A stretch of DNA of 64,000 nucleotides from an uncultured Acidobacteriota bacterium (lineage in GTDB: Bacteria > Acidobacteriota > Polarisedimenticolia > J045), in NCBI GenBank assembly GCA_963702425.1, contig CAVPCQ010000017.1, forward strand, positions 96,001 to 160,000. The letters are read 5' to 3'. How positions within the stretch are numbered: the first letter of the stretch is position 1; the number at the start of each line of letters is the position of its first letter. Shown here piece by piece: positions 6,045-61,014 of this stretch. The notes beneath the pieces are model-generated. The model was given only the letters and a program-made list of their open reading frames with translations. It made no database searches and was not told the origin of the DNA. Both the position numbers and the translations under genes were made by a program.

Positions 6045-7035
6045 TGTAGCGCGCCACGTGCGCCGTGAAAGGTCCGTTGGTCCAGCAGGTGCAAGTCCTG
6101 CCCCGGCAAAGGTCGTCCCGGCCGGGTGGCGATCCCAGCAGTGGTGGAGGCGACGAAGCGGTCGAAGCCTGGGAGAAAGAAGGCGACGCGAGGTCGTCTG
6201 CGAGCCAATAGGCCGCAACGCGAGTGAACACCGAGAGGGCCCCGAGAGTCACGATGCGAAGGCCGCCCCTCCCAAGCACAGGGGAAGGCTCCTACGGATG
6301 GCACGCAGTGAAGGACGACGCGTGCGGTCCGCTTCGCCGGGGTGGTGGGTGGCGGCATGCAGCGCGGAGCGGCGGGCAACACGGGAAGCCCGCTTCGGTG
6401 GCTGCGGCCAACGAGCGCGCGAGGCGCTCGGCCGAAGCGGGTGGCGGAGGGGCTCGTAGTACCGGTGAGACCGGGTAATGCCGGTGGAGGGATGGGGCCC
6501 TGGTTCCGGGGAGCCGACGGAGCAGCACGGGAGGGAGGCGATGGGCGATGAGCCTAGCAACGCCCGAGACGCCCCAGACGCGGCAGTTGACGCTATACCT
6601 GAAGGCCAAGCGAGAGTCGACCACGTCATCGTTCTCAACGAGAAGCACCTGCAGCGCCTTCTGGCCGGCCTCGCCTGGTAATACCTCAACGACCGGACGC
6701 ACTTGTCCCTCAAGAAGGATGCGCCCGCGGTGCGAGCTGTGGAGAGGAAGCCCGGTCCAGCCGCCGAAGTCATCGCCCTACCTCGCCTTGGCGGACTTCA
6801 TCATCGCTACGCTTGGCGCCGCGCGGCCTGACGATTCCGCTCGACCAATCCATCGCCGCGGCCTCGTGGTGGAGCGCGTGTGCCGTTGCGGACGGCGGAC
6901 CGCCGCCCTCTCTGTCAACCGGTGGGCAGGACCGTCGCCGATACGCGCAGGGGCGCGTTCGACCGGCGCGTTTGCCTGCCATTCCGCGCCGCGTGCGCCA
7001 TCAGCAATGCGCGAACTCGATATTGGCGAACAACA
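6045..7035 (+). mobile_element. TGT...ACA rve-integrase (IS481/IS3-like) remnant carrying a truncated group II intron
   Basis: Left end TGTAGCGCGCCA, right end TTGGCGAACAACA. Integrase C-terminal fragment DHVIVLNEKHLQRLL...RTHLSL...GGLHHRY; homologous to 60597-61014. Confidence 0.75.
6058..6614 (+). ncRNA. Group II intron 5' half (domains I-III plus first RT codons), truncated
   Basis: GTGCG 5' end at 6058; DIII-like GTAGTACCGGTGAGACCGGGTAATGCCGGTGGAGG; RT start MSLATPETPQTRQLTLYLKAKRE; no DV/DVI. Confidence 0.75.
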
Positions 7036-10000
7036 CCAGTACGGCCGCCGCACGCGCCGCCGGAAGCAGCAGTCCCATCCGCTCGGACTCGGCGAGCGCC
7101 GCCTCGGCCGCGGCCGCCGCGGCGTCGCCTTTCCCTGCCGCCGCGAGCGCTTCGGCCCGCAGTGCGGCGGCGGCGGGACGCTCGGGCTGCGGCGCCCGCT
7201 CGACCGCGAGGGCCGCGTCGAAGGCCTCGAGCGCTTCGGCCTTGCGTCCGCGCCGCAGGGCCGCCTCGCCCTGCAGGGTCAGCGCCGGCACTCGAAGGGC
7301 GGCGACGTCCGCGCCGGGAAGCGCACGCGGAGGGCCACGCGGTGCGCGTCGTTCCAGCGCCCCTCGTAGGCCAGCGCGACGCCCCGCGCCAGTTCCACCC
7401 GCGCCTCGAGGTCGGACAGACCGGGCGCATCGCGTACCGCGCGCCGGGCAACGTCGAGGTCCTCGGCCGCTTCGCGATCGCGGCCCAGCGCGGACAGCAC
7501 CTGCGCCCGCCGCACGCGCGCGTAGGTGACGTAGGCCGGCAGCGTGTGGGCGCTGAACACCGCGGCGGCGCGGGATGCGCCGTCGAGCGCGTCGGCGAGA
7601 CGGCCCTGGCGATCGAAGATCTCGGCCAGGCCGGCCCACGCCCAACCGGCGGCCTGGGAGGCCCGCTCGACCGGGGCATCGCCGGCAATCTCGCGGTACG
7701 TGGCGATCGCCGCGTCGATCTCGCCGCGCTGATACCGGATGTCGGCCAGCATCAGCCCGCTGGTGGAGGCGCTGTCGGTGCGGCCGAGCGAGCGCGCCAA
7801 GGCGACCGCTTCGGAAACGAGCGGCTCGGCCTCGTCGATGCGCCCCGTGTACTGAAGCAGGCTGCCAAGGTTGACGAGCGGGTCCAGCATGAGCGGCTCG
7901 TTCTGCAGCTGTCGCGCCACGTCGAGCGACTCGCGCAGCTGCCGCTCGGCCTGGGCGAAGTCGCCCTGCAGGTAGAACTGCACGCCACGGCGCAGCAGCG
8001 CCTCGCTCAACAGCGCGAGGTGCCCCGTCTCGCGCGCGACCGCCTCCGCCTTCTGGAGCGCGCGCTCGGCTTCCCGCGGTCGACCCAGCCGCAGCTCGTT
8101 GGCCGCGACTTCCATCTCGGATCGCGCCGCGCCGACGGTGCGCCCGGCGCGCTCGAACTGGCCCGCGGCAGAGGCAAACGCCGTGCCGGCCGCGGCGAAG
8201 TCCGCCTTCATGTCCGCCACCTGGCCGCGCGCGAACTGCGCGACAGCAAGACCTTCCGTGCTCTCGAGCTGGTCATAGAGCCGCTCGGCCGCGTCCAGCA
8301 CGGCCTCGGCCCGGGCCGGCTCATTCGCGAGCGTCAGCGTCTCGGCCTGGGCCAGGTACAGCGACGGATCGGCCGGCTCGCGCTCGAGGGCCCGCTGCAA
8401 CACGGCGAGGCTCTCGGTGAGCTGGCCCGCATCGGCAAGCGCGCTCGCGTGCAGTCGCAGGAGTCCGGCCTCGTCGGGGAACCGCTCGACCAGCGCTGCC
8501 GTCGCCGCGACCGCCTCGGCGGCGCGCCCAAAGGTGCGGGCCCAGATGGCCTTCAGCGTCAGCGACAGCCGCTCCTGCTCGGCGGTGCCGGCGTCCGGCG
8601 CCAGATCGAGGGCGTGCGTCGCCGCGTCGCGCGCTCGCGCGCCGTAGCCGGCCTCGTTCAGCGCCTCAGCGAGCCGCGCGAACGCCATCGAGTAGCCGGC
8701 GTCGAGCTCGACGGCCGCACTGAACCGCGCTACCGCCTCGTTGACCTTTCCGTCACGCAGTGCTGCCTGACCGCGTTCGTACAGCAGCCGGGCCTCGTCG
8801 GAGGCGGAGGTGAGATCGACGAGATCGACCCGGTCGTCGCGCCAGGCGGTCAACCGCCCCACGCCGGGCAGTGTCGTCCGCAGCTGCCTGGAAAGCCGTT
8901 CGGCCAGGGCGAGGGGGTCGCCGGCCTCGGCGCGCAGGGCCGGGAGTTCCGGCCGGCCGCGCGACGGTGCCGGCTCGAGCGTCGCCACGTAGCGGTCTCC
9001 TTCCTTGTACAGCGTGCCGGTGAACAGGTAATCGAGCCCCATCGCCTGCGCGACCCGCCGCGCCGCGGCCGGCTCCAGCGCCGCAGGATCGCCGCCCGCC
9101 GCTCTGGCGAGCTCGGCGGGGCCACGAACGCGCGCGAGCCGCGACGCAGAGAGATCGGTGGCGACGAGGTCGGCGATCATCGTGGCGTGCAGCGTCCCAG
9201 CCGCCTCGCCGGTGCGATCGTCGAGTGCCGCGATCGCGATCGCGAAACGCGGCGCTTCCCAGGCGGGGGGCGAGAGGAACCAGCGGGACCCCAGCGCCGC
9301 GACCGCGACGGTGGGGACCGCCAGGGCTGCGAACGAGATCGCGACGCGCCGGCGCCGGGCCGCGGCTGCAGCGTCCTGGGCCTTGACCCACTCGCCGCGC
9401 TGCGCGCGCTGGAGGTCCTCCGCCAGCGCCGCGGCGCTCGCGTAGCGCTCCTCGGGGCGCTTGCGCAGCCCGCGCTCCAGGACCGCGCGCAGGCCGGGCG
9501 TCGCATCGAAGGTCCGCGAGGCCTCGCGTGCGGCGGGAGGCTCGGTCAGGATGGCGCTGATGGTCTCTGCCTGGGTCTCGCGACGGAACGGGTGAATGCC
9601 GGTGGTCAGCTCGAAGCTGACGACCGCGAGCGAGAACAGATCGCTGGCGGGGCCCAGTTCCTCGGCACGGAGCTGTTCGGGCGACATGTACGCCACCGTA
9701 CCGACGATCGTCCCGTGGCGCGTCAGCGAGTCGTCGGCGGTCTCTGCCGTCGAGCCGATCGCGGACGCGGGCGCGCTTGGCCGCGCCAGCCCGAAGTCGA
9801 GCAGCTTGACGTGCCCGCTGCCGGAGACGATGACGTTGCCCGGCTTGACGTCGCGATGAACCAGGCCGTGCTCGTGGACCGCGCGCAGTGCCTCGGCCAG
9901 CTCCTCGCACCAGGCCAGCCGCTGATCCATGCCGATGGACGGGTCCTTGCCCGCCTCCATCAGCGTCCGGCCCTCGAGGTACTCCATCACCAGGTAGGTG

Positions 10001-12864: not shown

Positions 12865-12915
12865 GTAGGGTCGAGCACTGGCGCGGTACTTCTTGGATGC
12901 GGCCCATCCGTTGCT
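12865..12915 (-). ncRNA. Group II intron domain VI / 3' end remnant
   Basis: GTAGGGTCGAGCACTGGCGCGGTAC...ATCCGTTGCT matches 56165-56215 of the full intron. Confidence 0.75.
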
Positions 12916-13618
12916 TGTGCTTCGCCAAGATCGCATCCACGCGTCGGCACGACTGATGCCTCGGTGAATGCCGGGGCAAGAGGCACTCGCGACGGCATCG
13001 GCGACGGTCGCGCCCAACGGCTGGCAGAAATGGCGGCGGGGAGAGCGACACCAAGGAACACGCGCTCGGCGACGACGCGGCGGCCGCCGCAGAGACGACA
13101 TGGCCGAGCTTCTGGATCGCGCCGTGAAGGCGTGGCGCGCCCCTCGACAAGTTCTCGGCCGCCATCCGGTAGACGAGAGCGCGGATGTCGACCGTTGTGC
13201 TCGGGTCTCCAGCGTGGCGCCGCGATTTCCCACGCCCCTACCGTCTGAAGCCTTCGCGCTGCCAGCGCATGACGGTTGCGGGCTGCACGATGGCGAGCGC
13301 CTCCTCCCATCGGGTCCACCAGCGGGGCAGAGCCAGCCAGAGGAAGCCGTCGATGACGAGAAGGCGGGGCCGGGGATTCTTCCGCTGGAGGACGACAAGC
13401 TGCTGGCGGAGCGCGAGGTTCTCGATCAGAAGATGGGCGCGGCCGGCGAAGTTCGCGACGAGAGCCCGGAGGACGGCAAGGAGGCGGTGGAGCATCCATG
13501 CACGATGGCGGCCGTAGGGAGTGAGAGCAGCCGGGCTCATCCGCGGGCGATTCGGGTATCCTGCATGGAAGCGCAACTCGTTGAAGGGCAAGGCGGACGG
13601 GGTTTTTCGCGAAGGACA
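12916..13618 (-). mobile_element. TGT...ACA rve-integrase element, internally deleted
   Basis: Ends TGTGCTTCGCCAA and TTCGCGAAGGACA; ENLALRQQL...VQPATVMRWQREGFR and MAAEN..GAPRLHG fragments. Confidence 0.85.
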
Positions 13619-34567: not shown

Positions 34568-37417
34568 ATGGCTAGCGATCTCGGACGCACGCGTATGGAT
34601 ACGACGAGGAACTCGGCGACCCCAGACGATTCGCTCGTGCCGCGACGGGTGCGCCCGCTGGGCGTACCCGCGGCCTGGACCGGGGCCGAGTCGATACGGG
34701 TCTACCCCGCGGCTCGCCTCGACCAACTCGTCGCGCGTCAGGCCGAGCGGACCCCCGAGGCCATCGCCCTCAGCGACGGCCCGACGACCGTCAGCTACGC
34801 CCAGTTGATGCGGGACGCGCACAGGCTCGCCCACGTGCTCTGTGCACGCGGCATCGACCGTGAGGACCTGGTTGCCGTGTCTCTCGACCGATCGATCGAC
34901 CAGATCGTGAGCGTTCTCGGCGTCCTGCTGTCAGGCGCGGCATTCGTGCCGATCGATCCACAGGGGCCGGCGGAACGACGCCGCTTCATGCTGGAAGACG
35001 CCCAGCCGCGCGCGATCGTGACCAACGCGGCGTCTGCCGGCTCGATTCCCTCCGAGCTTCGCAGGATCGTCGTCTCTTCCGCATCGTTCGGCCAGGCGCA
35101 CGCGGAGCCCGGTGCCGGGAGTGCGCCGCTGCCGCTGACCGGAACGCCGCAGGATCTCGCATACGCGATCTACACATCCGGCTCCACCGGCACACCGAAG
35201 GGCGTGCTCAATCAGCACGACGGCGTGTCGAACCACCTGGCATGGATGGCGGAAACGTTTCCCCTCTCCACCGATGACCGCGTGCTCGTCAAGGCGCCGG
35301 CAGTGTTCGATGTCGCCGTCTGGGAATGGTTCTGGCCGCTCTCCCAGGGTGCGTGCCTCGTCCTGGCGCCTCCGGGCACCGACAAGGACCCGCGCAGCCT
35401 GCTCGACGCAATCGAAGCCCACCAGATCACGAACATTCACTTCGTGCCGACGCTGCTCCGCGTCTTGCTGGAGCGCCCGGATCTCGATCGCTGTCGGTCG
35501 CTGCAGCGGGTGTTCTGCAGCGGTGAAGCGGTGGCCGCGGACCTTCGTGATCGGTTCTTCGACCGCGTTCCGGGGAGACCTGTGCTGATCGACCTGTATG
35601 GCCCGACCGAAGCCGCCGTGCACGTCACCGCCTGGGTGTGCACGCCCGGAGAGACCGGACCGGTCCCGATAGGCCATCCGCTGCCCAATGTCCGGGCGTA
35701 CATCGTCGATCACGATCTCAACCCCGTGCCCGAGGGCGTTCGCGGCGAATTGCTGATCGGCGGCGTGCAGGTCGCGCGCGGCTATCTGCGCCGTCCCGAG
35801 TTGACGCGCGAGCAGTTCGTTCCGGATCCGTTTGTCGAGGATCCGGACGCGCGGTGCTATCGCACGGGCGACTGCGTCGCCTGGCGCGCAGACGGCGCGA
35901 TCGACTTCTTCGGCCGCTACGACTCACAGGTGAAGCTGGGCGGCGTGCGCGTGGAGCTGGGCGAGGTCGAGGCGGCGCTGCGCCTCCATCCGGCGGTCGG
36001 CGACGCGGCTGCCGTCGTACGGGAGGACGGAGAGTCGAAGCGGATCGTCGCCTATCTGCGACGTGCGCACGCCGGTGACACGCGGCCGGATCCCACGGTC
36101 GAGAGCCTACGCCGCTTCCTGGCCGACAGGCTGCCGGCCTACATGACGCCCGGCTGGTATGTGTGGCTCGACCGCTTTCCCGCCACGCCGACGGGCAAGC
36201 TGGATCGTCGAGCGCTACCGAATCCCGACGCGTCCCGGTTGTCGACCGAACGGGCGTTCGAACCCCCGGTCGCAGGCACCGAGGCGCATCTGGCGAAACT
36301 CTGGCGCGACGAGCTGAAGATCGATCAGGTCGGGCGGCACGACGACTTTCACCTGCTCGGCGGCGACTCGCTGGGCGCGATGCGGCTGTTTGAGCGGATT
36401 CGCGACACGTTTGGCGTGGACCTCCCGCTGGCAACGCTGTTCGAGGCTCGAACCGTCGCGGAACTCGCCGTACTGTTGCGGGATCGGATCGAGGGGAGCA
36501 CGCCGCCTGAATCGGGCGATCGCACGCGCCTTGAGACCGGCGTGCCGGCCATAACCCGTCCAGCCCTGCGCTCACTGGTCGCGGTGCAAAACGGAGCCGG
36601 CCGGACCCCGCTTTTCGTCGTGCACGGTGCTGGAGGCAACGTCCTCAACATCTGGGACCTGGCGCGGGCAATGAGTCCGAAGCAGGCCGTCTTCGGCCTC
36701 CAGGCCTCTGGCATCGATGGCGTCAGCCCACCGGGAGCGACGATCGAGCAGATGGCGCAGACCTACCTCGACGAGGTTCGGGCGGTGCAGCCACAAGGCC
36801 CCTACATGCTGGCCGGATACTCCGGTGGCGGCGTCATCGCATTCGAGATGGCGCGGAGACTGGACGAGGCGGGGGAAGCGATCGGGGTGCTCGCCTTCAT
36901 CGATACGTTTCATCCGCAGATGCGGCTCCCGCAGATCAACGCGTTGACTCGGCTCGAGCGGCTTCGTCGCGAAGGGATGCCGTATGTCCGTGATGCCTTC
37001 GACAGGCTGCGCAAGTCCCGCCAGGACGCTCGTGACGAGCGGCGACTCGAGGAGCATCTGGCGGCGGGCGAGCCGATCCCACTCGCCCTGCGTGAGCTGT
37101 ACCTGATTCGCAACTTCCAACACGCGGCGCGCCGGTACACACCGCCGGCGTGGCCGGGGAAGGTGCTGTTGTTCAGGGCCGAGCAGGTCGATTACTACTA
37201 CCGGGCCGGCGGCCCGGTCTACGGATGGGACGAGACCGTCCTGGGCGGCATCGAGATCATTCCGATCCCGGGCGATCACGACACGTTATTGCTCGGCGCC
37301 AACGCCCAGCGCATTGCGCACCGCCTCGGCCAGGCGATCGACGAAGTGGAGGCCCGAGGGGCGATCAGGACAGGGAGGGATAGACGAAGCGGAGCGCCAG
37401 AACGTACTGCAGATTGA
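34568..37417 (+). CDS. Stand-alone single-module NRPS (A-PCP-TE)
   Basis: YTSGSTGTPKG, FDVAVWE, YGPTE, YRTGD, TGKLDR; GGDSL; GYSGGG and GDH. No condensation domain. Confidence 0.93.
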   Translation: MASDLGRTRMDTTRNSATPDDSLVPRRVRPLGVPAAWTGAESIRVYPAARLDQLVARQAERTPEAIALSDGPTTVSYAQLMRDAHRLAHVLCARGIDREDLVAVSLDRSIDQIVSVLGVLLSGAAFVPIDPQGPAERRRFMLEDAQPRAIVTNAASAGSIPSELRRIVVSSASFGQAHAEPGAGSAPLPLTGTPQDLAYAIYTSGSTGTPKGVLNQHDGVSNHLAWMAETFPLSTDDRVLVKAPAVFDVAVWEWFWPLSQGACLVLAPPGTDKDPRSLLDAIEAHQITNIHFVPTLLRVLLERPDLDRCRSLQRVFCSGEAVAADLRDRFFDRVPGRPVLIDLYGPTEAAVHVTAWVCTPGETGPVPIGHPLPNVRAYIVDHDLNPVPEGVRGELLIGGVQVARGYLRRPELTREQFVPDPFVEDPDARCYRTGDCVAWRADGAIDFFGRYDSQVKLGGVRVELGEVEAALRLHPAVGDAAAVVREDGESKRIVAYLRRAHAGDTRPDPTVESLRRFLADRLPAYMTPGWYVWLDRFPATPTGKLDRRALPNPDASRLSTERAFEPPVAGTEAHLAKLWRDELKIDQVGRHDDFHLLGGDSLGAMRLFERIRDTFGVDLPLATLFEARTVAELAVLLRDRIEGSTPPESGDRTRLETGVPAITRPALRSLVAVQNGAGRTPLFVVHGAGGNVLNIWDLARAMSPKQAVFGLQASGIDGVSPPGATIEQMAQTYLDEVRAVQPQGPYMLAGYSGGGVIAFEMARRLDEAGEAIGVLAFIDTFHPQMRLPQINALTRLERLRREGMPYVRDAFDRLRKSRQDARDERRLEEHLAAGEPIPLALRELYLIRNFQHAARRYTPPAWPGKVLLFRAEQVDYYYRAGGPVYGWDETVLGGIEIIPIPGDHDTLLLGANAQRIAHRLGQAIDEVEARGAIRTGRDRRSGAPERTAD

Positions 37418-39159: not shown

Positions 39160-39189
39160 GAGCGGCGTACGGGGTCATGGCGAGGCACA
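39160..39189 (-). mobile_element. Solo left end of the TGT...ACA element family
   Basis: GCGGCGTACGGGGTCATGGCGAGGCACA resembles GCGGACGGGGTTTTTCGCGAAGGACA (13618) and the end at 55738. Confidence 0.6.
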
Positions 39190-46023: not shown

Positions 46024-46585
46024 ATGCGTGACCTCCTTGCAGTGCGGACCGTGGTGATCGTAGCGGCCGTTGCACTCCCGGCCAGGGCCACGGACCCTGT
46101 CAACCGGCTTGGGGATACCCCCACGCACAGCGGGGTCGACACCCCGCCGACCGGCAAGGTGTTCTTCGACACCGTGGTGGGCCACTGTCCCAGCGGCCAG
46201 ATCGTGTGCGGCGGGGTTTGCGATGTCGACAGCGACGCGGACACGTTCTGCGACCATCTGGACAACTGCCCGAACCGGGCCAACACGGACCAGGTCAACC
46301 GGGACGGAGACCAGGCGGGGGACGTCTGCGATTACAAGCAACGCCGTCACTGAATATCACACTCTCATGCTGGTTCGCGGGTTGTCGTTCATGTGGATCC
46401 AGGGCCTGGGCTTCGGCAGACTCTACGACTTCCTGATCTATCGCGGATTCGCGCGTGCGCAATGGGGCCATTTCTCCAACAGCTTCATCCCGTTGGACCT
46501 CTCGAGCGACGGTCGCGTCATCGTCGGTGGTACCGGGGCCGTCTCCGGCTTGCCCGGCTGGGTCGCGATCACGCGACACGACTGA
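46024..46585 (+). pseudogene. Internally deleted, inverted paralogue of 49869-51542
   Basis: Shares the signal peptide, the DTPP.GKVFF..CDHLDNCP segment, the C-terminus and ~75 bp of downstream DNA. Confidence 0.9.
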
Positions 46586-46922
46586 GAGCGGTCGGTCTCT
46601 GCGCTCGCAGATGGCGGGTCGGTGACGATCCGCCGCCCGTCGACTTCGTGGCCGGACCGCGCACCTTCGGGCACGCTACTCCGCGAATCGCCGCCGACCT
46701 ACCCCGGCCGATCCACGAGTTCGACCGGGCGCTTCGGTAGAGCAGCCGTCCGGCTGGTCTGGCCCCACGATCGGTCACCCCGCCCCTGGTGCCGTCCTCA
46801 GCCAGGGAACGAAACGCGGGCAGAACCCATTATCTACCGCCGTCTTCCGCTTCCGGACATCTGCCCGGCCTTCTCCCACTCCGCTCGCCTGTGTACTCCT
46901 CGTGCCTATTGGAGACGCTGCC

Positions 46923-47589: not shown

Positions 47590-49631
47590 ATTGGTAGATC
47601 CTATCGCGCCCGACCGGGTTGCCCCGTCGGACGTGCAAGACCCCCTTTCAAACCGTGCGTGCGGATTTCCCGCACACGGCTTACCGGTGGTCTCTCGAGG
47701 CGCGGCATTACACGGCCTGCCAGAAGGGCTGTTCGGGGGACTGGATCGTGCCCCGCAGCCGGTGCAATCCCAGGTTCCAGAAGTACTCGCGCGTCCACCG
47801 GGCCGCCTCGCCAGGCTGGAGCGACCGGCCTTGGCGCTGAAGCCGCAAGCGCCGGAGCCGTTGCCAGACGTAGCGATCGACCTGATTGAAGCGTTTGGCG
47901 GCATTCCCGGTGCGGAAGTAGGCCCCCCACCCGCGCAGGACGGGGTTGAGGACGGCGATCACCTCGCGCAGATCGGCGTGGCATCGTCCCCGCGGGGTCA
48001 GCTCCTTCACGCGCTGCCGGATCCGCTTCATCGCCCGTGGAGACGGCCACCGGTGCAGAAAGTACAGGCGCTGGTCCCGTCTGCTCCCAGACCTTGCCGC
48101 TCAGGCGCTTGTGCAGATGGCAGCCGAGGAAGTCGAAACCCTCCTGGCCGTTCCAGAGTTCGACCCGCCTCGTCTTTTCCGGGTGTAGTTCCAGACCGAG
48201 CCGCCCGAGGATCGCCCGTATCCGCTCCTCGGCCCGCTCGCACGCCACCTTCGTGCGGCACAGCACCACGAAGTCGTCACAGTAACGCACCAGCGTCCCC
48301 AAGGGAGCGCTGTGTCGCGTCCACAGGACATCCAGCACGTGCAGGTAGATGTTCGACAGCAACGGTGAAATCACCCCGCCCTGCGGCGTCCCCGCGATCG
48401 TCGGGGTCACCGTGCCATCCTCCAGCACCCCAGCCTCGAGCCACTGCCGCAGCAGCTTGAGCACCCGCCGATCCGAGACGCGTCGCCCGACGAGTTTCAG
48501 CAACTTGTCGTGGTCGATGCTCCCAAAGTAGTTGCGGATGTCCGCGTCGAGCACGTGATGGTGCCCCTTCGCGCCGAGCTTCCTCAGCGTCTCCAGCGCA
48601 CCCTGCGCGCTCCGCTTGGGGCGGAAGCCATACGAAACCGGCAGGAAGTCGGCCTCGAAGATCGGCTCCAGCACCAGCTTCGCCGCCCTCTGCACCACCC
48701 GGTCCCGGACCGTCGGGATGCCCAAAGGCCGCTGCCTTCCGTCAGCCTTCGGGATGGACCGGCGCAGCACCACCCCTGCCCGGTACTCCTTCGCACGCAG
48801 GGCCTGGCCGAGCTCATCCAACATCCGCTCGACCCCATACCGCTCGACCTCGGCGATCGTCTCCTTGTCCACGCCCGCCGCGCCGCGGTTCGCCCGCACC
48901 CGCCCCCACGCTTCCCGCAGGACGTCACCCCTGCAGATGTGGTCGTACAACGCGTGAAAACGCCTCCCAGCCGACCGTTTGGCCGCACTCCACAGCCGTC
49001 GTTGCAGTCGTCGCACTTTGTCGCGCGCCGTTCCGGCGCCGGGGTCGTTAGGTCCGCTCGCGGCGGCCATTCCCTCGCGCTTACCTGCTCCGACGACACA
49101 ACCACCGCAGGGACCCTTCCCTCCCGCCGCGTTCTTCGTCGCGACGATCACCGGTACTACGATCCCCTCGGACTCCCGCTGCGCAGCGGCCGATTTCGCC
49201 TCCGGCTGATACGACGCGCCTGGCCCCGACGTGGGCCGCGCAGACGGGTCTCTCGTGTTCCGCACCGCTCCTTGCACGCGTGCTGCGCCCCCTACCCCGC
49301 CGGGACCGCCCGCGCGCTCCGGTTCTGACGCGGGCGGTGTTGCCTTCGCCGTGACATGAGCGGCTCGGCCCCCGGATTGTTCCTCTGTCGAGGCTGCAGG
49401 CTTCACTTCAGGTTGCGGCCCGCGTGCTCGCTCCCTGCGGCACGGCTTCCGCCGCCTCGCAGGCTTTCGATGCCCCGCTCGGGCAAGGCGGTCTCCCGCC
49501 CTCGCCGGGGGCCTGCTACCCGGCGCGCCGGCGCTTACCGGGGCGGGACTTCCACCCGCTGGATCGGTGCAGCTTGAAACCGGCCCCATCGCCGTCTGCT
49601 GGCCCTGGCCACCGGCTTCTTCACGACGCAC
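47590..49631 (-). mobile_element. Group II intron, full-length RNA boundaries
   Basis: GTGCG at 49631; DV AAGCCGTGTGCGGGAAATCCGCACGCACGGTTT; DVI ending CTACCAAT at 47590. Confidence 0.92.
47708..49070 (-). pseudogene. ltrA: Group II intron RT/maturase (no En domain), frameshift near 48075
   Basis: RPLGIPTVRDR, GFRP, GTPQGG.ISPLL, YCDD, FDFLG; the maturase LNPVLRGW..YF is in another frame. Confidence 0.9.
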
Positions 49632-49868
49632 CATCGAGGTGAGGATACCGCTGCGGGGTCGCGCTCAGTCGCTCGTCCCCGTCGGAATCGCTCCCATGCG
49701 TGCCCGTCCGGACGCATCGCCGTCGCGGGGGCCGGGCGCGTCCCCGACGCCCGCACTGACCCCACGACCGGTCGCCCCGCCCCCGGGGCTATCCTCCCCA
49801 GAGTGCGAAGTCGACGGGCCGCGGATCGTCGCCGACCCGCCATCTGCGAGCGCAGGGGCCGACCGCGC

Positions 49869-51542
49869 TCAGTTGTGTCGCGTGATCGTGACCCAGCCGG
49901 GCAAGCCGGACACGGCCCCGGTACGACCGACAATGACGCGACCGTCGCTCGAGAGGTCCAACGCGATGAAGCTGTCGGAGAAATGGCCGAGTTGCGCACG
50001 AGTGAATCCGCGATAGATCAGGTAGTCGTAGAGATCGCCGAAGCCCACGCCCTGGACCCAGATGAACGGCAACCCGCTGGCCAGCATGTTCGTGTGGTAT
50101 CCGGTGATGACGTTCCCGCCATCCGAGATCGCCACGGCCCTGGGGCTCCACTCCACGTCCAGGGTGCCAGGACCCAGGGGCGAGAGTCCTCCTGTGAAGG
50201 TCCAGCGGCACGCGCGATTCCCGGACGACACCGACGCCGCCGACCCGTCGAACGTGACGTCGTAGGCCACGCCGAAGTCGTTCATCCACTCCGGCCAGTA
50301 CGTGGCCGGCGGCTGGTAGGTCCAGATCACGCCGGTCTCCGAGCCCAGCTCCGGGTTCGCGGATCCCACGATCCTGCCGCCGTCGCCCGACACGCCCTCG
50401 ACGAGCCGCACCGACGTGTCCTCGGGACCACGGAACAGCTGCCAATCCTCGGCCGCGATGTCGTAGCGGTATCCGACCAGCTTGCAGGGTTGCTCGACCG
50501 TCGGCGTCCTGCCGTAGACGACCTTGCCGTCCGAGGTCATGTCGGCGCCCTCGCTGTAGAAACGGCACGCGTCAATGTTGATGGTGTCGTCGTACAGACC
50601 CAGAACCTCCCAGTTGCCGTTGGTCCGGTCGTAGATCGCCGCGGCACTGACCTTGGACACCGATTGCGGGACGTAGGTGTTGATGCTGGCCAGCACCAGG
50701 TTGTTGTCGTCGCTGAACCCGCGGATCTGGCTCACCCGCTCGATCCCCATGTACTCGTAGTAGCTGGTGTCCGACGGGTTCGCGATGAACGCCTCGGTCG
50801 GAATCAGGACGCCCCGCAAGGTGCTGGGCTCGAGCGCGGCGATCCACCGGCCGTCCCGCGAGACGCGTAGGGCCTGGTGGCCCGGCAACTCGGCGTAGAA
50901 TCGGTCCGGCATGGAGAAGTTGCACAATCCCGTCGGGCACGAATCGCACGCATTCGGCAGGCCGCCGCGGTCGGAGTCCAGCGCATCGTTGCTGTTCGGA
51001 CACTGGTCGTGGCAGTTGGGCACGCCGTCGCCGTCGCTGTCCGCGGTGTCCTCGACCTTGAAACAGCCGCACCTGCCGCGGTCGACTTTCGCCAGATCAC
51101 TGATACAGTAATCGCAGACGTCTCCCGCCTGGTCGCCGTCCTGGTTGGCCTGGTCCGTGTTGGCCCGGCTCGGACAGTTGTCCAGATGGTCGCAGAACGT
51201 GTCGGCGTCGCTGTCGACATCGCAAACCCCGCCGCAGACGAGCTGGCCGCTGGGACATTGGCCCACCACGACGTAGAAAAACACCTTGCCGGCCGGCGGT
51301 GTGTCGATCCAGCTGTTCGTACTGGTATCCCCAAGTCGGTTGCCGGGGTCCGTGGCCCGGGTCGGATCCGTCGACCGGAATACGGTGTAGGTCGGAATCG
51401 TCCCGGTCCAGCTGAGGGTCACGGAGGTGGCGCTCTGTCCCCTCGACACCCTCAGGTCAATGCCCTCGGGCGCGGCGGCCCGGGCCGGGAGCGCAATGGC
51501 TGCGACGATCAGTACGGTCCGCACTGCAATGAGGGCACGCAT
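49869..51542 (-). CDS. Secreted protein: FN3-like module + thrombospondin type-3 repeats + HAF-like propeller
   Basis: Signal peptide; DNCP..AN.DQ.N.DGD..GD.CD; VS.DG..IVG repeats. Confidence 0.88.
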   Translation of the reverse strand: MRALIAVRTVLIVAAIALPARAAAPEGIDLRVSRGQSATSVTLSWTGTIPTYTVFRSTDPTRATDPGNRLGDTSTNSWIDTPPAGKVFFYVVVGQCPSGQLVCGGVCDVDSDADTFCDHLDNCPSRANTDQANQDGDQAGDVCDYCISDLAKVDRGRCGCFKVEDTADSDGDGVPNCHDQCPNSNDALDSDRGGLPNACDSCPTGLCNFSMPDRFYAELPGHQALRVSRDGRWIAALEPSTLRGVLIPTEAFIANPSDTSYYEYMGIERVSQIRGFSDDNNLVLASINTYVPQSVSKVSAAAIYDRTNGNWEVLGLYDDTINIDACRFYSEGADMTSDGKVVYGRTPTVEQPCKLVGYRYDIAAEDWQLFRGPEDTSVRLVEGVSGDGGRIVGSANPELGSETGVIWTYQPPATYWPEWMNDFGVAYDVTFDGSAASVSSGNRACRWTFTGGLSPLGPGTLDVEWSPRAVAISDGGNVITGYHTNMLASGLPFIWVQGVGFGDLYDYLIYRGFTRAQLGHFSDSFIALDLSSDGRVIVGRTGAVSGLPGWVTITRHN

Positions 51543-55247: not shown

Positions 55248-55738
55248 TGTGCTTCGCCAAAATCGAATCCATGCGTCGGCATGACTGATGCCTCCGTGAA
55301 TGCCGGGGCAAGCGGAGGTCGGCCGCTGTGCTCGGGCCTCCAGCATGACGCCGCGATTTCCGGCGCCCGTACCGTCGGAAGCCTTCGCGCTGCCAGCGCA
55401 GGGCTGAACGATGGCGAGCGCCTCCTCCCATCGGATCCACCAGCGGCGCAGAGCCAACCAGAGAAGGCGGTCGATGAGGAGAAGGCGGGACCGGGGGTTC
55501 TTCCGCCGGAGGACGGCACGCTGCTGGCGGAGGGCGAGATTCTCGATCAGAAGCTCAGCGCGGCTGGCGAAGATCGCGAGAAGAGTCCGGACGACGGCAA
55601 CGACGCGGTTGAACATCCGCGCCCGATGACGGCGGTACGGACGGAGGGCAACCGAGCTCGTCCGCCGGAGAGTCGGTTATCCTGCATAGGAACGCAACTC
55701 GTTGAAGGGCAGGGCGGTCGGGGATATGGCGGGAGACA
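55248..55738 (-). mobile_element. TGT...ACA rve-integrase element, internally deleted
   Basis: Ends TGTGCTTCGCCAA and TGGCGGGAGACA; ENLALRQQ...WEEALAIVQP fragment. Confidence 0.85.
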
Positions 55739-56164
55739 GGTGCGCAGGAGCTCGAGGAGAACGGCCGCGGTCAGCTCGGCGTCGAATGCCAGCCGGTAGC
55801 ACAGCGCGAACGGCAGCGTCAGCACCCAGCCCGCCCCCGCCCGTCCGCATGCCCTGCGGCGAAGGACTCACGGCTGGGCCGGTCTCCGCTTGGCAGGTGC
55901 CCCGGTCTCCTGAGTCGAACCGATCCCGGCCGAAGATCAACCCCATCCTCATGGTGTACACTCTAAAACCGACGACGGCGGGACGAAATACCGTTTATCC
56001 CTGCGCCGCGTCGAGGCGAGCATCTCCGGCCCGCAGAGGCGCGCATGGCAGCGGATGACGAAGGCTCCGGCCAGAAAGCACCGCATAGCGACATCCTGCA
56101 GGCGCTGGGTAACCTGATCGCCGGCCCCAGGAACCAGCCGTTGCTGTGGGAGCGGCGCGGCCTG

Positions 56165-58170
56165 GTAGGGTCGAGGACTGGCGCGGTACCCCTTGGACGC
56201 GGCCTATCCGTTGCTCCCCGTTTCCTCTGGGAGTGCCTCACTAGCCACATCGTGGGCCCGTTTCCAGCCCCCGCCACATCGCACGCAGCAAGCGGATTTC
56301 CCGCACTACGCGCTCCTGCACACTTCGCATCAAGGGTTATGAAACCGTTCGGCCGGAGCGACTTTCGGTGATGAGGACACGAGGTATCGGATCCGGTAAT
56401 CGCCGAATAGTCCGAGAGTCTCGTACAGCCATCGCCTACTCCACCGCTTCCAGCCGAAGCCGGGGCGCAATCGGGCCCGCGCCAGGTGACGCCTGATCTT
56501 CTCTTCTACCCAGTTTCGGATGAACGACAGACACCGGCTCGAGTGCCCGTGCGCGAAGTAAGTCACCCAACCGCGCAGGATGGGATTGATCTTCTCGACC
56601 AACCTCCTGGTCGGTTGGGAACGAAGGCGGCGAAACCACGTCTTGACCTCGCGTAGCAACGCCGTCCGGTTCTTCAGCTGCGGCGTGCGCAGCGGCATCC
56701 ACCGCCCTGCACGACTCCGCACTCGGCGAAACTCAAAGCCGAGGAATCCGAAGCTCTCCCCTCGCGTCAGGTCCACGTTCCGGCTCTTCTCCTCGTTCAC
56801 CTCCACCCGCAGCTTGGCCAGCTCCTCCCGAAGCCGTTTCTCCACCGCTCGACGAAGCCACGCATGACGCGGATGAGAGTCCACCAACAGCACCAGGTCG
56901 TCGGCAAACCGAGCGTACTCGATCGCCGTGAATCGACCGTAGCGCGTGACCTCTTTCGCCCGCTCCAGCATCCTGTCCACCTCGTTGAGGTACAGATTGC
57001 TCAGCAAGGCTGAGATCACACCGCCTTGAGGAACTCCCACCTTCCCGGAAGCCTTCAGGATCATTCGCAGCAAGTGCATCACGTCCTCGTCATCGACTCG
57101 CTTGGCTACCTTCCCCAACACGATGGCGTGTGCCACCGTGTCGAAGTAGGAACGCAGGTCGAGATCGATGACATACGTCTTACCTTGAATGATCGCATCC
57201 GAGACCCGTTGCACCGCGTCCTGCGGTCTTCGCCTGGGTCGGTAGCCACATGACCCCGACTGAAAGCCCGCCTCGAAGATCGGTTCCAGGATGAGCTTGA
57301 GCGCTCCCTGGACCACCCGGTCCCGGATGGTTGGGATCGACAGGACGCGGAACGTGCCGCCCGCCTTGGGAATCTCAACCTTCCGGACCCGTAGGGGACG
57401 ATGGATGCGTTCGCTCAGTTCCCTCCTGAGCTGCTCCACGAAGCTATCCACGCCCTGCGCCTCGATCGCTTCGAACGTGACCCCATCAATCCCCGGGGCC
57501 CCGTTGTTCTTCTTGGCGAGTCGATACGCCTCTCGTAGCGTCTCCGTCTTGCACACGTGCACATACAGTCCCCAAAAAGCGCCAAGACGGCTCGGCCTTC
57601 GCCTTGACGTATATCCTTCGTCTCAGGTCTTGCAGATCGACGGGTGCTTTTGTCATTTCACCCCTGCCTTCCATGTTGACGAAGGATTCGTGTGCAGCAG
57701 GGCCCCTTCGCTCTACGGGCGTTACCCCGCTTCTTCGCTACTTCGGACCCGGCCGCCACCGTCTCGTCTTCGGTCGATTTCCCGGGGTCTCCGGTCATTC
57801 GACCTACCTTGCTCCGTCGATTTCTCGACGGGACGAGGACGGCTTCTCCAGTTGCTCGGCATGTCCTTGTCACCGTGCTGCCCCTACCACCCCGCCGGAG
57901 TGACCCGCCGCCTCGGTCAGATTGCGACGGACCATGCTGCCTTCGCCCCGAGGCAGAGAGCTCGGCCTCCGGAATCATCATTCGTCGAGGCCACCTCTGG
58001 GTTCACTCGCGTTGCGGCCCGGTGACTCGCTCACCATCCCGAAGATGGCTTTGTCAGTCGGCTTCACCAGATTCGTTTCCTCCACTGATGCGACCCGAGC
58101 TACGGGGCTTCTGACTTTTGCCCCGGTGGGACTCACTCCCACTGAACATGCCAGCCTTCGCTGGACGCAC
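56165..58170 (-). mobile_element. Group II intron, full-length RNA boundaries
   Basis: GTGCG at 58170; DV GCGCGTAGTGCGGGAAATCCGCTTGCTGCGTGC; DVI ending GACCCTAC at 56165. Confidence 0.92.
56330..57656 (-). pseudogene. ltrA: Group II intron RT/maturase (no En domain), one extra T in a homopolymer near 57575
   Basis: MTKAPVDLQDLRRRIYVKAKAEPSWRF then, in another frame, GAPGIDG, IPTIRDR, GVPQGG, FADD, FLGF, INPILRGW. Confidence 0.9.
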
Positions 58171-58717
58171 TCCCTCGCCACAACCCCGTCCGCCTTGTCC
58201 TTCATCGAGTTGCGTTCCCATGTAGGCGACCCGAATCGTCCGCGGACGAGCCCGATCGCCCTCAGTTCCTACCGCCGTCAGCGCGCGTGGATGCTCAACC
58301 GCCTCCTTGCCGTCGTCATGCGATGCCATCGCGAAGGTGTCAGACGGTACGGGCGCTGGACATCGCGGCGCCACGCTGGACGCCCGAGCACATCGGGCGG
58401 CCTCCGCGCGCTCGTCCACCGGATGGCGACTGAGAATCCGTCGACCGCGACGACCGGACGCACTTGTCCCTGAAGAAGGACGCTCCCGCGATGCGAGCTG
58501 TGGAGACGAGCACCGATCCAGCCGCGGAAATCATCGCTCGCCCGCTCCTCGGCGGACTTCACCACCGGTATGGCTGGCGTCCCGCAGCCTGACGCTCTCG
58601 CTCGACCGATCTGCTGCCGCCGCCGCCGCGTCGTCACCGAGCGCGAGTGCCTCTTGCCCCGGCATTCACCGAGGCATCAGTCATGCCGACGCGTGGATGC
58701 GATTCTTGCGAAGCACA
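58171..58717 (+). mobile_element. TGT...ACA element, internally deleted; its terminal TG is at 56163-56164, beyond the intron
   Basis: TG + TCCCTCGCCACAACCCC rebuilds the left end; right end TTGCGAAGCACA; RMATENP and GGLHHRY fragments. Confidence 0.85.
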
Positions 58718-58863: not shown

Positions 58864-60099
58864 TCAGATCCGCTCGATCGCGAGCAGCGACACGTCGTCG
58901 CGCAGGTGGCCTCCCGACCAGTCCCGAACGAGATCGGCGACGAGTTCGAGCCCTGCCCGCAGGGGGCGGTGCCGCCCCCGGTCGATCTCCGCTACCAGCC
59001 TCTCGTAGCCGAACTCCTGCTCCAACGCGTTCGGCGCTTCGATGACTCCGTCCGTGTAGAAGTACAGCCGATCCCCGGGTTGGAGGATCACGGTCTCGTC
59101 GTCGTAGGTCGCGTGCTCGATCATCCCGATCGGCAGGCCGCTGCCGTGAAGCCGGACCGGCGTCCCCGCCTTGGGAAAGAGGATGGGGGCGGGGTGGCCG
59201 GCCATGACGTACTGGAAGAGCCCTCGTGACGCGTCGAAGACCCCGTACACGAACGTGAAATACTGTCGCGTTCGATCCATCGGGAACTGCCGGTTGAGAC
59301 GCTCCGCTACGCGCGATGGCGGAACTACGCTGAGTCCGTCTGTTTTCGCCTCGAGGAGAAGCGCCCCTTCGACCGATGGCGACAGCATGTGATTCAAGGT
59401 GAACGACAGGAGGGCCGCCCCCACTCCGTGGCCGCTGACGTCCAGCAGGTAAAGCCCCACCGGGCCGTGCGGGAAGGCGACCACTCCCACCGCATCACCC
59501 GCCAGGTCGGTGCAGGGGTGGAACGCACGGGCGATGCGCAATCCACCCAGGTGCAGTTCCGCCGGCGGGAGCAGGGCGTTCTGGATTCGCGCCGCCAGTT
59601 GGAGATCGTGTTCGAGCACCTCCTTGGCCCGACGCAGTCCGTGCTCGGCCTCGCGACGCACGCTGACGTCCGACTGGATGCCGATGAAGTGGGTGACCTC
59701 GCCGAGGTCGTTGCGGACCGGCGTGATCGAGAGCCGGTTCCAGAACGCGGTGCCGTCACGCCTGTAGTTCAGGATCTCGACGATGCACTCGCGTTGCTCG
59801 GCAACGGCGGCACGGATTTCCGCAACCGCGTCCGGATCGGTGTCGGGCCCCTGAAGAAACCGGCAGTTCCTGCCCAGCACATCCGCGATCGCGTACCCCG
59901 TCATGCGCTCGAAGCCCTCGTTCACGTAGATGAGGGGCCGGTCCGGCAGCCGGGCGTCCGCAATGGTGATGCCCTCAGCCGCGACGTCGAGCGCACGGTC
60001 CTTCAACTCGGGGTGGTCCGCCAGCGCTCGTTCCTGGAGACGGGCGGCGGCCGACGCTTCGATGTGTTGGTCAGGGGGCTCGGTTGACACGCGCACCAC
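58864..60099 (-). CDS. LOV (PAS-PAC) - coiled coil - SpoIIE/PP2C phosphatase
   Basis: GRNCRFLQ, NYRRDG..FWN, IGIQ.D; AARIQ..LLP, GD, DVSGHG, TDG, DD. Confidence 0.93.
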   Translation of the reverse strand: MVRVSTEPPDQHIEASAAARLQERALADHPELKDRALDVAAEGITIADARLPDRPLIYVNEGFERMTGYAIADVLGRNCRFLQGPDTDPDAVAEIRAAVAEQRECIVEILNYRRDGTAFWNRLSITPVRNDLGEVTHFIGIQSDVSVRREAEHGLRRAKEVLEHDLQLAARIQNALLPPAELHLGGLRIARAFHPCTDLAGDAVGVVAFPHGPVGLYLLDVSGHGVGAALLSFTLNHMLSPSVEGALLLEAKTDGLSVVPPSRVAERLNRQFPMDRTRQYFTFVYGVFDASRGLFQYVMAGHPAPILFPKAGTPVRLHGSGLPIGMIEHATYDDETVILQPGDRLYFYTDGVIEAPNALEQEFGYERLVAEIDRGRHRPLRAGLELVADLVRDWSGGHLRDDVSLLAIERI

Positions 60100-60159: not shown

Positions 60160-61014
60160 TGTGCGTCGCCTTGACTTCGTCCGCCCTACCCTTCAGCGAG
60201 TTGCGTTCCTATTCAGGCTACCCGAATCGCCCGCGGACGAGCCCGGTCGCCCTCCGGCCATACCGCCGTCAACGTGCGTGGATGCCCAACCGCCTCCTTG
60301 CGGTCGTCATGCGCTGGGATCGCGAAGGCTTCAGACGGTACGGGCGCTGGACATCGCGGCGCCACGCTGGACGCCCGAGCACAACGGGCGACCTCCGTGC
60401 GTTCGTCCACCGGATGGCGACCGAGAATCCGTCGTGGGGAGCGCCGCGCATCCACGGCGAGATCCAGGAACTCGCCCTGGAGGTCTCCGAACGCACAGTC
60501 TCTCGCTACATGCCCCGGCGTCCGGCACATCCCGACGCACGGCAGCGCTGGCGCATGTTTCTCGCCGACCACCGCGGGGTCATCGCCGCGATCTGCTCGA
60601 CCACGTCATCGTCCCGAACGAGAAGCACCTGCAGCGCCTTCTGGCCGGCTTCGTCTCGTACGACCTCAACGATCGCACGCACTTGTCCTGAAGACGGATG
60701 CTCCCGCGATGCGAGCTGTGGAGTCGAAGCCCGATCCAGCCGCCGAGGTCATCGCCCGACCTCGCCTTGGCGGACTTCATCACCGGTACAGCTGGCGTCC
60801 CGCAGCCTGACGATTCCGCTCGAATAGTCCGTCACAGCTGCTTTGTCGCGGAGCACGTGTACTCTTGCGGACGGCAGTCCGCCGCCCTCTCTGTCAACCG
60901 GTGGGCATGACCGTCGCCGACACATGCAGGGGCGCGTTCGGCCGGCGACTCTGCCTCCCATTCCGAGCCGCGTGGGCCATCAGCAATGTGCGGACTCGAT
61001 CTTGGCGAAGGACA
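60160..61014 (+). mobile_element. TGT...ACA rve-integrase element, internally deleted
   Basis: Ends TGTGCGTCGCC and TGGCGAAGGACA; ENPSWGAPRIHGE...VSERTVSRY, DHVIVPNEKHL, GGLHHRY. Confidence 0.88.

Follow-up and report, generated by a model that had tools for sequence, protein, structure and literature searches.

A group II intron without an endonuclease that very probably homes into the outward-reading end of an rve-type insertion sequence in an Acidobacteriota genome

We analysed 64,000 nucleotides (nt) of an uncultured Acidobacteriota bacterium (hereafter the window; assembly GCA_963702425.1, contig CAVPCQ010000017.1, positions 96,001 to 160,000), in which a group II intron lies inside the end of an insertion sequence (IS). 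The data make it very probable that this intron, which is of the type described by the Rfam model RF02003 and lacks an endonuclease (En-minus), uses the outward-reading end of a ~1.37-kb rve-type IS as its retrohoming site. On the plus strand the intron splits the IS tip as TG^TCCCTCGCCA (^ denotes a splice junction throughout), and the junctions on the minus strand, along which the intron runs from 58170 to 56165, read ...GGGGTTGTGGCGAGGGA^GTGCGTCCAG...CGACCCTAC^CAGGCCGCG, a longer read of the 5' exon being ...GGCGGACGGGGTTGTGGCGAGGGA^GTGCGTCCAG. These borders coincide exactly with those of a first-pass annotation, which had placed the intron at 56165-58170, just before the terminal CA of the element. 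The 3' boundary is fixed because ...CGACCCTAC is conserved in relatives, whose sequences diverge after it. The parts of the intron are:

56165-58170, minus strand: full-length group II intron, 2006 nt, 5' GUGCG ... CCCUAC 3'
58007-58144, minus strand: domain I core, matching RF02003 (group-II-D1D4-4) with 126.3 bits against a gathering score of 49
56330-57656, minus strand: intron-encoded reverse transcriptase/maturase gene, frameshifted, with RVT_1 and GIIM domains
56281-56313, minus strand: domain V, a 13-bp hairpin with a 2-nt bulge and a GAAAU loop (folding and covariation)
56169-56275, minus strand: domain VI, unusually long (folding and covariation)

The element shows the make-up of a group II intron, namely a reverse transcriptase/maturase, a domain I core, a GUGYG 5' end, a domain V, and a pairing between exon-binding site 1 (EBS1) and intron-binding site 1 (IBS1). 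In an alignment of 16 sequences, domain V displays compensatory changes at six of its 13 pairs, with the G.U pair invariant. The model of domains V and VI, RF00029, found no match at E<=1 on 56120-56420, apparently owing to the long domain VI. A stretch beginning AGCAACGG, judged by eye as a candidate domain V, was rejected and belongs to domain VI. RVT_1 and GIIM are the only domains of the encoded protein, and no HNH or other endonuclease domain follows the maturase domain, in keeping with the first-pass annotation, which called the intron En-minus. The intact protein of a second copy (on contig C34) has 441 residues and matches TIGR04416 over residues 38-393 (342.8 bits; cut-off 300). The window copy is frameshifted by an extra T in the run 57574-57578 (TTTTT, versus TTTT in the other two full copies), and the extra T is also absent from public contigs of three sequencing runs; therefore, the intact form is common outside the present assembly. 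Because its protein gene is frameshifted, the window copy is probably non-autonomous and would depend on the intact C34 copy.

The host element is one of several IS copies in the window, all of them internally deleted derivatives:

58171-58717 (with 56163), plus strand: host element, an internally deleted, non-autonomous IS derivative, running from the left inverted repeat (IRL) minus its first TG to the tip of the right inverted repeat (IRR) at 58717
56163-56164, minus strand: CA that closes the IS end (TG on the plus strand) and with which the 3' exon now begins; CA in all three copies
55248-55738, minus strand: neighbouring deleted IS copy, with its IRL tip (55738) turned towards the interrupted tip at a distance of 424 bp
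60160-61014, plus strand: further deleted IS copy
12916-13618, minus strand: further deleted IS copy of 703 bp with GCT on both flanks

Of the transposase, the host element retains residues 101-143 and 326-372 alone. A full-length relative of ~1.37 kb lies on the same contig (locus L001, C17:20060-24000); it starts TGTCCCTCGCCAAGACCCC, its IRL TGTCCCTCGCCAAG lies at position 21 of the locus, and its IRR ...CTTGGCGAGCCACA ends at position 1386. Its transposase comprises 372 residues with rve_3, HTH_32 and HTH_21 domains and scores 78 bits with the IS481 model NF033577 (cut-off 224) and 75.5 bits with the IS3 model (cut-off 160); as both scores fall far below the curated cut-offs, we refer to the host as an IS481/IS3-like rve element with TGT...ACA ends. 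The copies share terminal inverted repeats, occur in multiple numbers and have unrelated flanks; a possible target-site duplication (GCT/GCT) was seen at 12916-13618, with no clean repeat at the other copies in the window. Directly after the 5' splice site, the plus-strand sequence repeats, in inverted orientation, the right-hand ends found in the elements 12916-13618 and 55248-55738. The intron occupies the transposase-proximal end, i.e. the IRL, where it is antisense to the transposase gene and reads outward, which accords with the annotation's "left end".

When the intron is excised in silico, ...CCTG joins TCCCTCGCCACAACCCC and a 12-mer, TGTCCCTCGCCA, is rebuilt. Within the window, support for this 12-mer as an IS tip is weak, with no exact match and 17 matches at up to two mismatches (9.9 expected; four of 100 shuffles reach 17). 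Across the genome it has 11 exact matches, in each of which the outer side is unrelated DNA. A search with the subterminal IS context gave 28 matches in the genome, comprising 20 that end in NACA followed by an unrelated flank, three split by an intron, three with altered tips and two that look spurious. Because uninterrupted tips end in ACA followed by unrelated DNA, the intron separates the A from the last two bases, CA, and so lies 2 nt from the tip. The rebuilt TGT...ACA end of the first-pass annotation is thus a real tip, whereas the "five" elements said to share it could not all be placed; four elements of the family and a solo tip at 39164-39189 were located in the window.

Three full copies of the intron were found in the genome (blastn), in the window, on C34 (99.6% identical) and on C32 (92%, at the contig end). 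All three sit at the same spot in three different IS copies, reading ...GGCGAGG[G/C]A^intron^CA and then unrelated DNA, and their 5' exons end ...GGGGT[TG/TA/CA]TGGCGAGG[G/C]A. The pairwise identities of the introns are 99.6, 92.0 and 92.1%, versus 73.4, 70.1 and 83.3%, respectively, for the adjacent 240 nt of IS sequence, and the hosts differ in kind: one is a 547-bp deletion derivative, another an almost complete IS, and the third a remnant of 70 residues. Since the introns resemble one another far more closely than do the adjoining IS sequences, they are considerably younger than the split between their hosts and entered separately; on this sequence comparison, at least three diverged IS copies received the intron independently. 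No full-length copy was detected with the intron DNA among thirty relatives of the genome, in which the partial matches were 73 nt of the 5' end in G021 and short internal or 3' segments in G003 and G004. In public data, contigs from sediment and freshwater-sediment metagenomes hold the intron family at 90-100% identity (runs X1-X3 and X15), some of them in other exon contexts (directly after a domain V, see below). One public DNA contig carries the intact tip TGTCCCTCGCCAAA, and an RNA-library run holds intron contigs, one of which runs from the intron 24 nt into an IS-tip exon; such contigs are uninformative on transcription and splicing. No contig of the public runs joined 56164 to 58171, i.e. 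no empty allele of the locus was found, which bears neither way.

The site is matched by sequences in the intron that could recognise it through base pairing:

57949-57955, minus strand: EBS1, UGCCUCG, in domain I, complementary to the last seven exon bases
57970-57986, minus strand: putative EBS2 loop GACGAAUGAUGAUUCCG, closed by a predicted hairpin GGCCUC...GAGGCC
58171-58187, minus strand: IBS1 CGAGGGA (58177 to 58171) and IBS2 GGGGUUGU (58187 to 58180), inside the left inverted repeat of the IS

EBS1 pairs with CGAGGCA at all seven positions on C34, and likewise on C32, there with one G.U because the EBS1 of that copy is UGUCUCG. Over 51 distinct combinations of relative and site, EBS1 and the intron's own exon formed on average 6.33 of seven pairs (28 with seven, 17 with six), compared with 3.50 +/- 0.18 for shuffled exons, whose maximum was 4.06 in 2000 trials. 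In the candidate EBS2, the loop segment AUGAUUCC (57971-57978) can pair with GGGGUUGU (GGGGUYRU) at exon positions -17 to -10, forming seven, five and seven contiguous pairs in the three copies, and in relatives a loop of GAAAA or GAAUU matches UUUUC or AAUUC in a register of -13 to -9. The EBS2 assignment is less firm than that of EBS1. That the IS end is a homing site had been proposed in the first-pass annotation, and both the identical position of the three copies and the complementarity of EBS1 and EBS2 to the IS end speak for that proposal.

Relatives of the encoded protein number in the hundreds (67-85% identity) and come from Acidobacteriota, Proteobacteria, Gemmatimonadota and others; among 80 related loci of other genomes, the intron junctions could be mapped in 75. 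The protein tree falls into two groups, a clade of 25 rows that includes the present intron (98 in the Shimodaira-Hasegawa-like approximate likelihood ratio test) and a group of 56. All 19 rows labelled as IS-tip, a label read from the exon sequence (a 5' exon like ...TTTTSG plus 7-9 nt, then CA or CG after the junction), belong to the 25-row clade. A homologous transposase lies beside the 5' exon in nine of the 80 related loci (seven sense, two antisense), and in all nine the interior of the IS is on the 5'-exon side. A search for the far inverted repeat (up to three mismatches) gave matches at 12 of the 75 loci, of which five are credible (L011, L018 and L027-L029); the remainder were rejected because of wildcard positions or contexts other than an IS. 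In a Terriglobia genome, two IS copies (L028 and L029) differ by four mismatches in 1151 nt and have the far tip CGTAGGGTC; therefore, their near end is ...GACCATA^CG, with the intron 2 nt from the tip. The alignment of L048 is compatible with 2 nt, with a score equal to the best shuffle (26 vs 26). When near and far ends were aligned locally at 13 loci, the best shuffled score was beaten in three, equalled in two and undercut in eight. To judge from these junctions, relatives in other phyla and other IS families occupy either end of their IS, always reading outward, and they lie 2 nt from the tip wherever the tip is firmly mapped.

What the sequences demonstrate is the insertion site, three independent entries, the covarying pairings, and the outward-reading position of relatives at either end of other IS families. 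Retrohoming very probably proceeds as follows. The intron RNA would recognise the strand that ends in the ...CA-3' of the transposase, with EBS1 (UGCCUCG) pairing to the last seven IS bases (CGAGGCA or CGAGGGA) and the EBS2 loop to GGGGUYRU a few bases upstream. Reverse splicing would then insert the intron after the A and ahead of the CA, leaving 2 nt to the tip; the whole recognised 5' exon would thus lie inside the IS, and beyond the intron only C(+1) and A(+2) would remain. By analogy with the En-minus introns RmInt1 and RmInt2, synthesis of complementary DNA may be primed by nascent lagging-strand DNA at the replication fork. DDE transposases use the inner part of the repeat for binding and the terminal CA for chemistry. 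On this basis, it seems moderately likely that correct cleavage and joining fail at the interrupted end, because the 2-kb insertion has moved the terminal CA away from the inner part of the repeat to which the transposase binds. A bolder proposal is that a phylum-spanning clade of En-minus, RF02003-type introns has specialised on the outermost nucleotides of rve-type IS, always on the transferred strand, reading outward and just upstream of the 3' cleavage site, and that these introns exploit the nicked, single-stranded or replicating end in copy-out transposition as dedicated parasites that inactivate IS ends; we regard this as unlikely.

Several observations weigh against homing at the IS end. 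At least six tips with a perfect CGAGGCA^CA, including that at 39164-39189 in the window, are unoccupied, and therefore homing is either far from saturating or no longer active; the protein gene is frameshifted in two of the three full copies. Since the genome is a 42-contig draft (91% complete, 5.85% contamination), all copy numbers are lower bounds. In the window, EBS1 pairs with CGAGGGA at only six of seven positions, with G opposite G at -2, and the EBS2 of the C32 copy has an internal mismatch; across the family, the mean longest EBS2 run is 4.38 versus 4.01 +/- 0.11 in shuffled exons (maximum 4.41), which is a weak signal. The IS-tip labels rest on exon sequence, with an adjacent transposase or a matching far repeat for ten of the 19. 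At L011 and L018, the inverted-repeat similarity extends 3-6 nt past the intron, and the distance of 2 nt is thus not universal. Finally, the near-identical IS and intron at the two loci L028 and L029 would fit a composite that is still transposing equally well.

The last point leads to the possibility that the intron entered an IS once and was then spread by transposition of the IS, the shared site reflecting common descent. An intron inside an IS, 2 nt from its tip, would indeed travel with the transposing element, the 3' exons diverge right after the CA as transposition would yield, and L028 and L029 fit equally well. However, introns with pairwise identities of 99.6, 92.0 and 92.1% stand beside IS sequences with 73.4, 70.1 and 83.3%, the three host elements differ in structure, and the covariation of EBS1 across relatives shows that pairing selects the site; we therefore consider such a common descent very unlikely. 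The reverse order of events, in which the IS would select the 5' ends of introns already in place and insert next to them, might appeal because this IS family does land beside or within other mobile DNA (tandem tips at C10:120872 and in the 3' exon on C34, and a tip abutting an intron fragment at 12915/12916). Yet an inserting IS would bring along a complete ...ACA tip, whereas in all three copies the tip is split, with ...A before and CA after the intron, and reverse splicing requires what is seen here, a 7-nt stretch ahead of the split that matches EBS1, so that this order of events appears highly improbable.

The draft state of the metagenome-grade assembly, with its 42 contigs and 5.85% contamination, and the position of the C32 copy at a contig end could point to mis-joined repeats or to three ectopic insertions that coincide by chance. 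Such an origin is exceedingly improbable, given that the same junction emerged from the assembly three times, each in a different setting of flanking and IS sequence, that related junctions occur in independent public genomes, and that in public sediment metagenomes contigs cover the intron, a DNA contig has an intact tip and an RNA-library contig runs from the intron 24 nt into the IS-tip exon.

Homing of the intron into the IS end, which we thus prefer, has a published counterpart, and the first-pass annotation overstated the novelty of the habit: homing of an En-minus intron into the inverted repeats of an IS has been reported and tested at the bench for RmInt2 and ISRm17 (Martinez-Rodriguez et al. 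2014, PMC4615759; Toro et al. 2018, PMC5894124). Each of the seven RmInt2 copies in Sinorhizobium meliloti GR4 is described as occupying an inverted repeat of ISRm17, left or right; experiments demonstrated retrohoming, and the authors proposed that homing at both IS ends doubles the number of targets and helps to curb the spread of the IS (PMC4615759, PMC5894124). RmInt2 and the present intron are alike in being En-minus, in having the terminal inverted repeat of a multicopy IS as their natural homing site, and in having both IS ends as potential targets, recognition by RmInt2 proceeding via EBS1, EBS2 and EBS3. On plasmid pRmeGR4c (NC_019848), all four copies of RmInt2 read flank-CTAG-TGCCCRTCCATA^intron^..TCGCCAAC... 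According to our own reading of this sequence, RmInt2 lies ~12 nt inside the tip and reads inward, with its 5' exon partly outside the IS; the present intron, in contrast, lies 2 nt from the tip and reads outward, with its whole 5' exon inside the IS and the terminal CA split off. RmInt2 is a class D intron that matches RF01999 and RF00029, whereas the present intron matches RF02003 and not RF00029, and the two proteins are 33% identical. The C-terminal motif of class D, LX3AX3PXLF[V/A]HW (PMC4615759), was not seen by eye in the C-terminus of the present protein. Assignment to class D (RmInt1/RmInt2) was rejected in view of the unseen motif, the match to RF02003 instead of the RF01999 of RmInt1/2, and the 33% protein identity. 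RmInt1 of S. meliloti, likewise class D, is also En-minus and has an IS-borne, multicopy site in ISRm2011-2, with priming from the lagging strand (PMC4615759, PMC5894124). It differs from the present intron in that its target lies inside the transposase gene, not in the terminal repeat, and in its intron class.

Introns of class C (IIC) insert after a terminator or attC hairpin, recognise this DNA hairpin together with a short IBS1, and are not known to use an EBS2. The present intron, unlike them, reads its site via a 7-nt EBS1 and an EBS2, with no hairpin at the site; class C was rejected because there is no hairpin before the site and an EBS2 loop is present. The two are similar in being En-minus and in targeting repeated non-coding motifs of mobile elements, in class C the imperfect inverted repeats of attC, the target habits of bacterial introns being given in a review as three, namely homing sites, terminators and attC (Zimmerly and Semper 2015, PMC4424553). 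In the part of the literature that was searched, we found no account of an intron reading outward 2 nt from an IS tip. The principle of homing into IS ends is known; what is new here is the lineage, the outward orientation, the split-off cleavage dinucleotide and the clade-wide habit.

These findings add a second, structurally unrelated lineage to the one case that has been studied of introns that home into the inverted repeats of an IS, and the habit appears to belong to a whole clade across several phyla rather than to one strain. Since everything that the intron reads lies within the IS, every copy of the IS is a target whatever its surroundings, and the insertion separates the cleavage dinucleotide of the transposase from its binding site. 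If the end is indeed blocked, such introns would be natural inactivators of transposons and provide a simple system for the study of conflict among mobile DNAs. The EBS1 and EBS2 rules mapped for the clade could also widen the set of retargetable En-minus introns.

The sister group in the protein tree displays a different habit, as 32 of its 56 rows are located directly after domain V (...CGGTT^) of another RF02003-type intron (L021-L026, L031, L033, L035, L042-L043, L047, L049-L053, L055, L059-L069, L072, L076-L078, L081-L082). Insertion of introns into introns is thus recurrent in the sister clade, and in L021 two RF02003 matches lie 1.9 kb apart. Other group II introns have been described as the commonest neighbours of group II introns, and introns "hiding" in mobile elements have been reported in the same paper (Waldern et al. 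2020, PMC7306698); intron-in-intron nesting is a habit of the sister clade and not of the present intron.

Further traces of introns and of the IS family occur in the window, including a fragment of the present intron family:

12865-12915, minus strand: 3'-end remnant of a related intron, 51 nt, 90% identical, with 3' exon CAAGGCC, abutting the IRR tip at 12916

The junction ...CCCTAC^CAAGGCC of this remnant agrees with the first-pass annotation, in which its 3' exon was said to start with CA. No further intron sequence was found beyond 13618, on the far side of the element 12916-13618 (best score 22); the remnant might have arisen by insertion of the IS into an intron followed by a deletion. 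A third RF02003-type intron (6059-7036, plus strand) starts with GTGCGCC at 6059 and breaks off at 6616, some 20 codons into its protein gene, where it is fused to the 3' part of an IS transposase and an IRR tip (~7036); the fusion at 6616 is a deletion or recombination junction between intron and IS. Another group II intron (~47593-49600, minus strand) matches RF02003/RF02005 and RF00029 and lacks a recognisable GUGYG at its 5' end; the 3' exon begins with CAATGC, an IRL-like sequence TGTCCTTCGCGA follows 21 nt downstream, and the region is flanked by inverted repeats of 258-309 nt (46078-46648 and 49806-51365).

The solo IS tip of 26 nt at 39164-39189 (plus strand), GGCGTACGGGGTCATGGCGAGGCACA, is a perfect match to IBS1 and IBS2, has no intron, and adjoins a nonribosomal peptide synthetase-like gene with adenylation, thiolation and thioesterase domains (A-T-TE; 34568-37417) and an FG-GAP repeat gene. 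Other solo tips (14-19 nt) stand in tandem against complete tips at C34:45846-45866, C10:120872-120911 and C17:30860-30885, which suggests that the IS has a tendency to insert at its own termini or next to them; one of these solo tips serves as the 3' exon of the intron on C34, CA-GGGGTTGTGGCGAGGGACA. Between two of the deleted IS copies, the window also contains a gene with PAS and SpoIIE (PP2C phosphatase) domains (58864-60099, minus strand).

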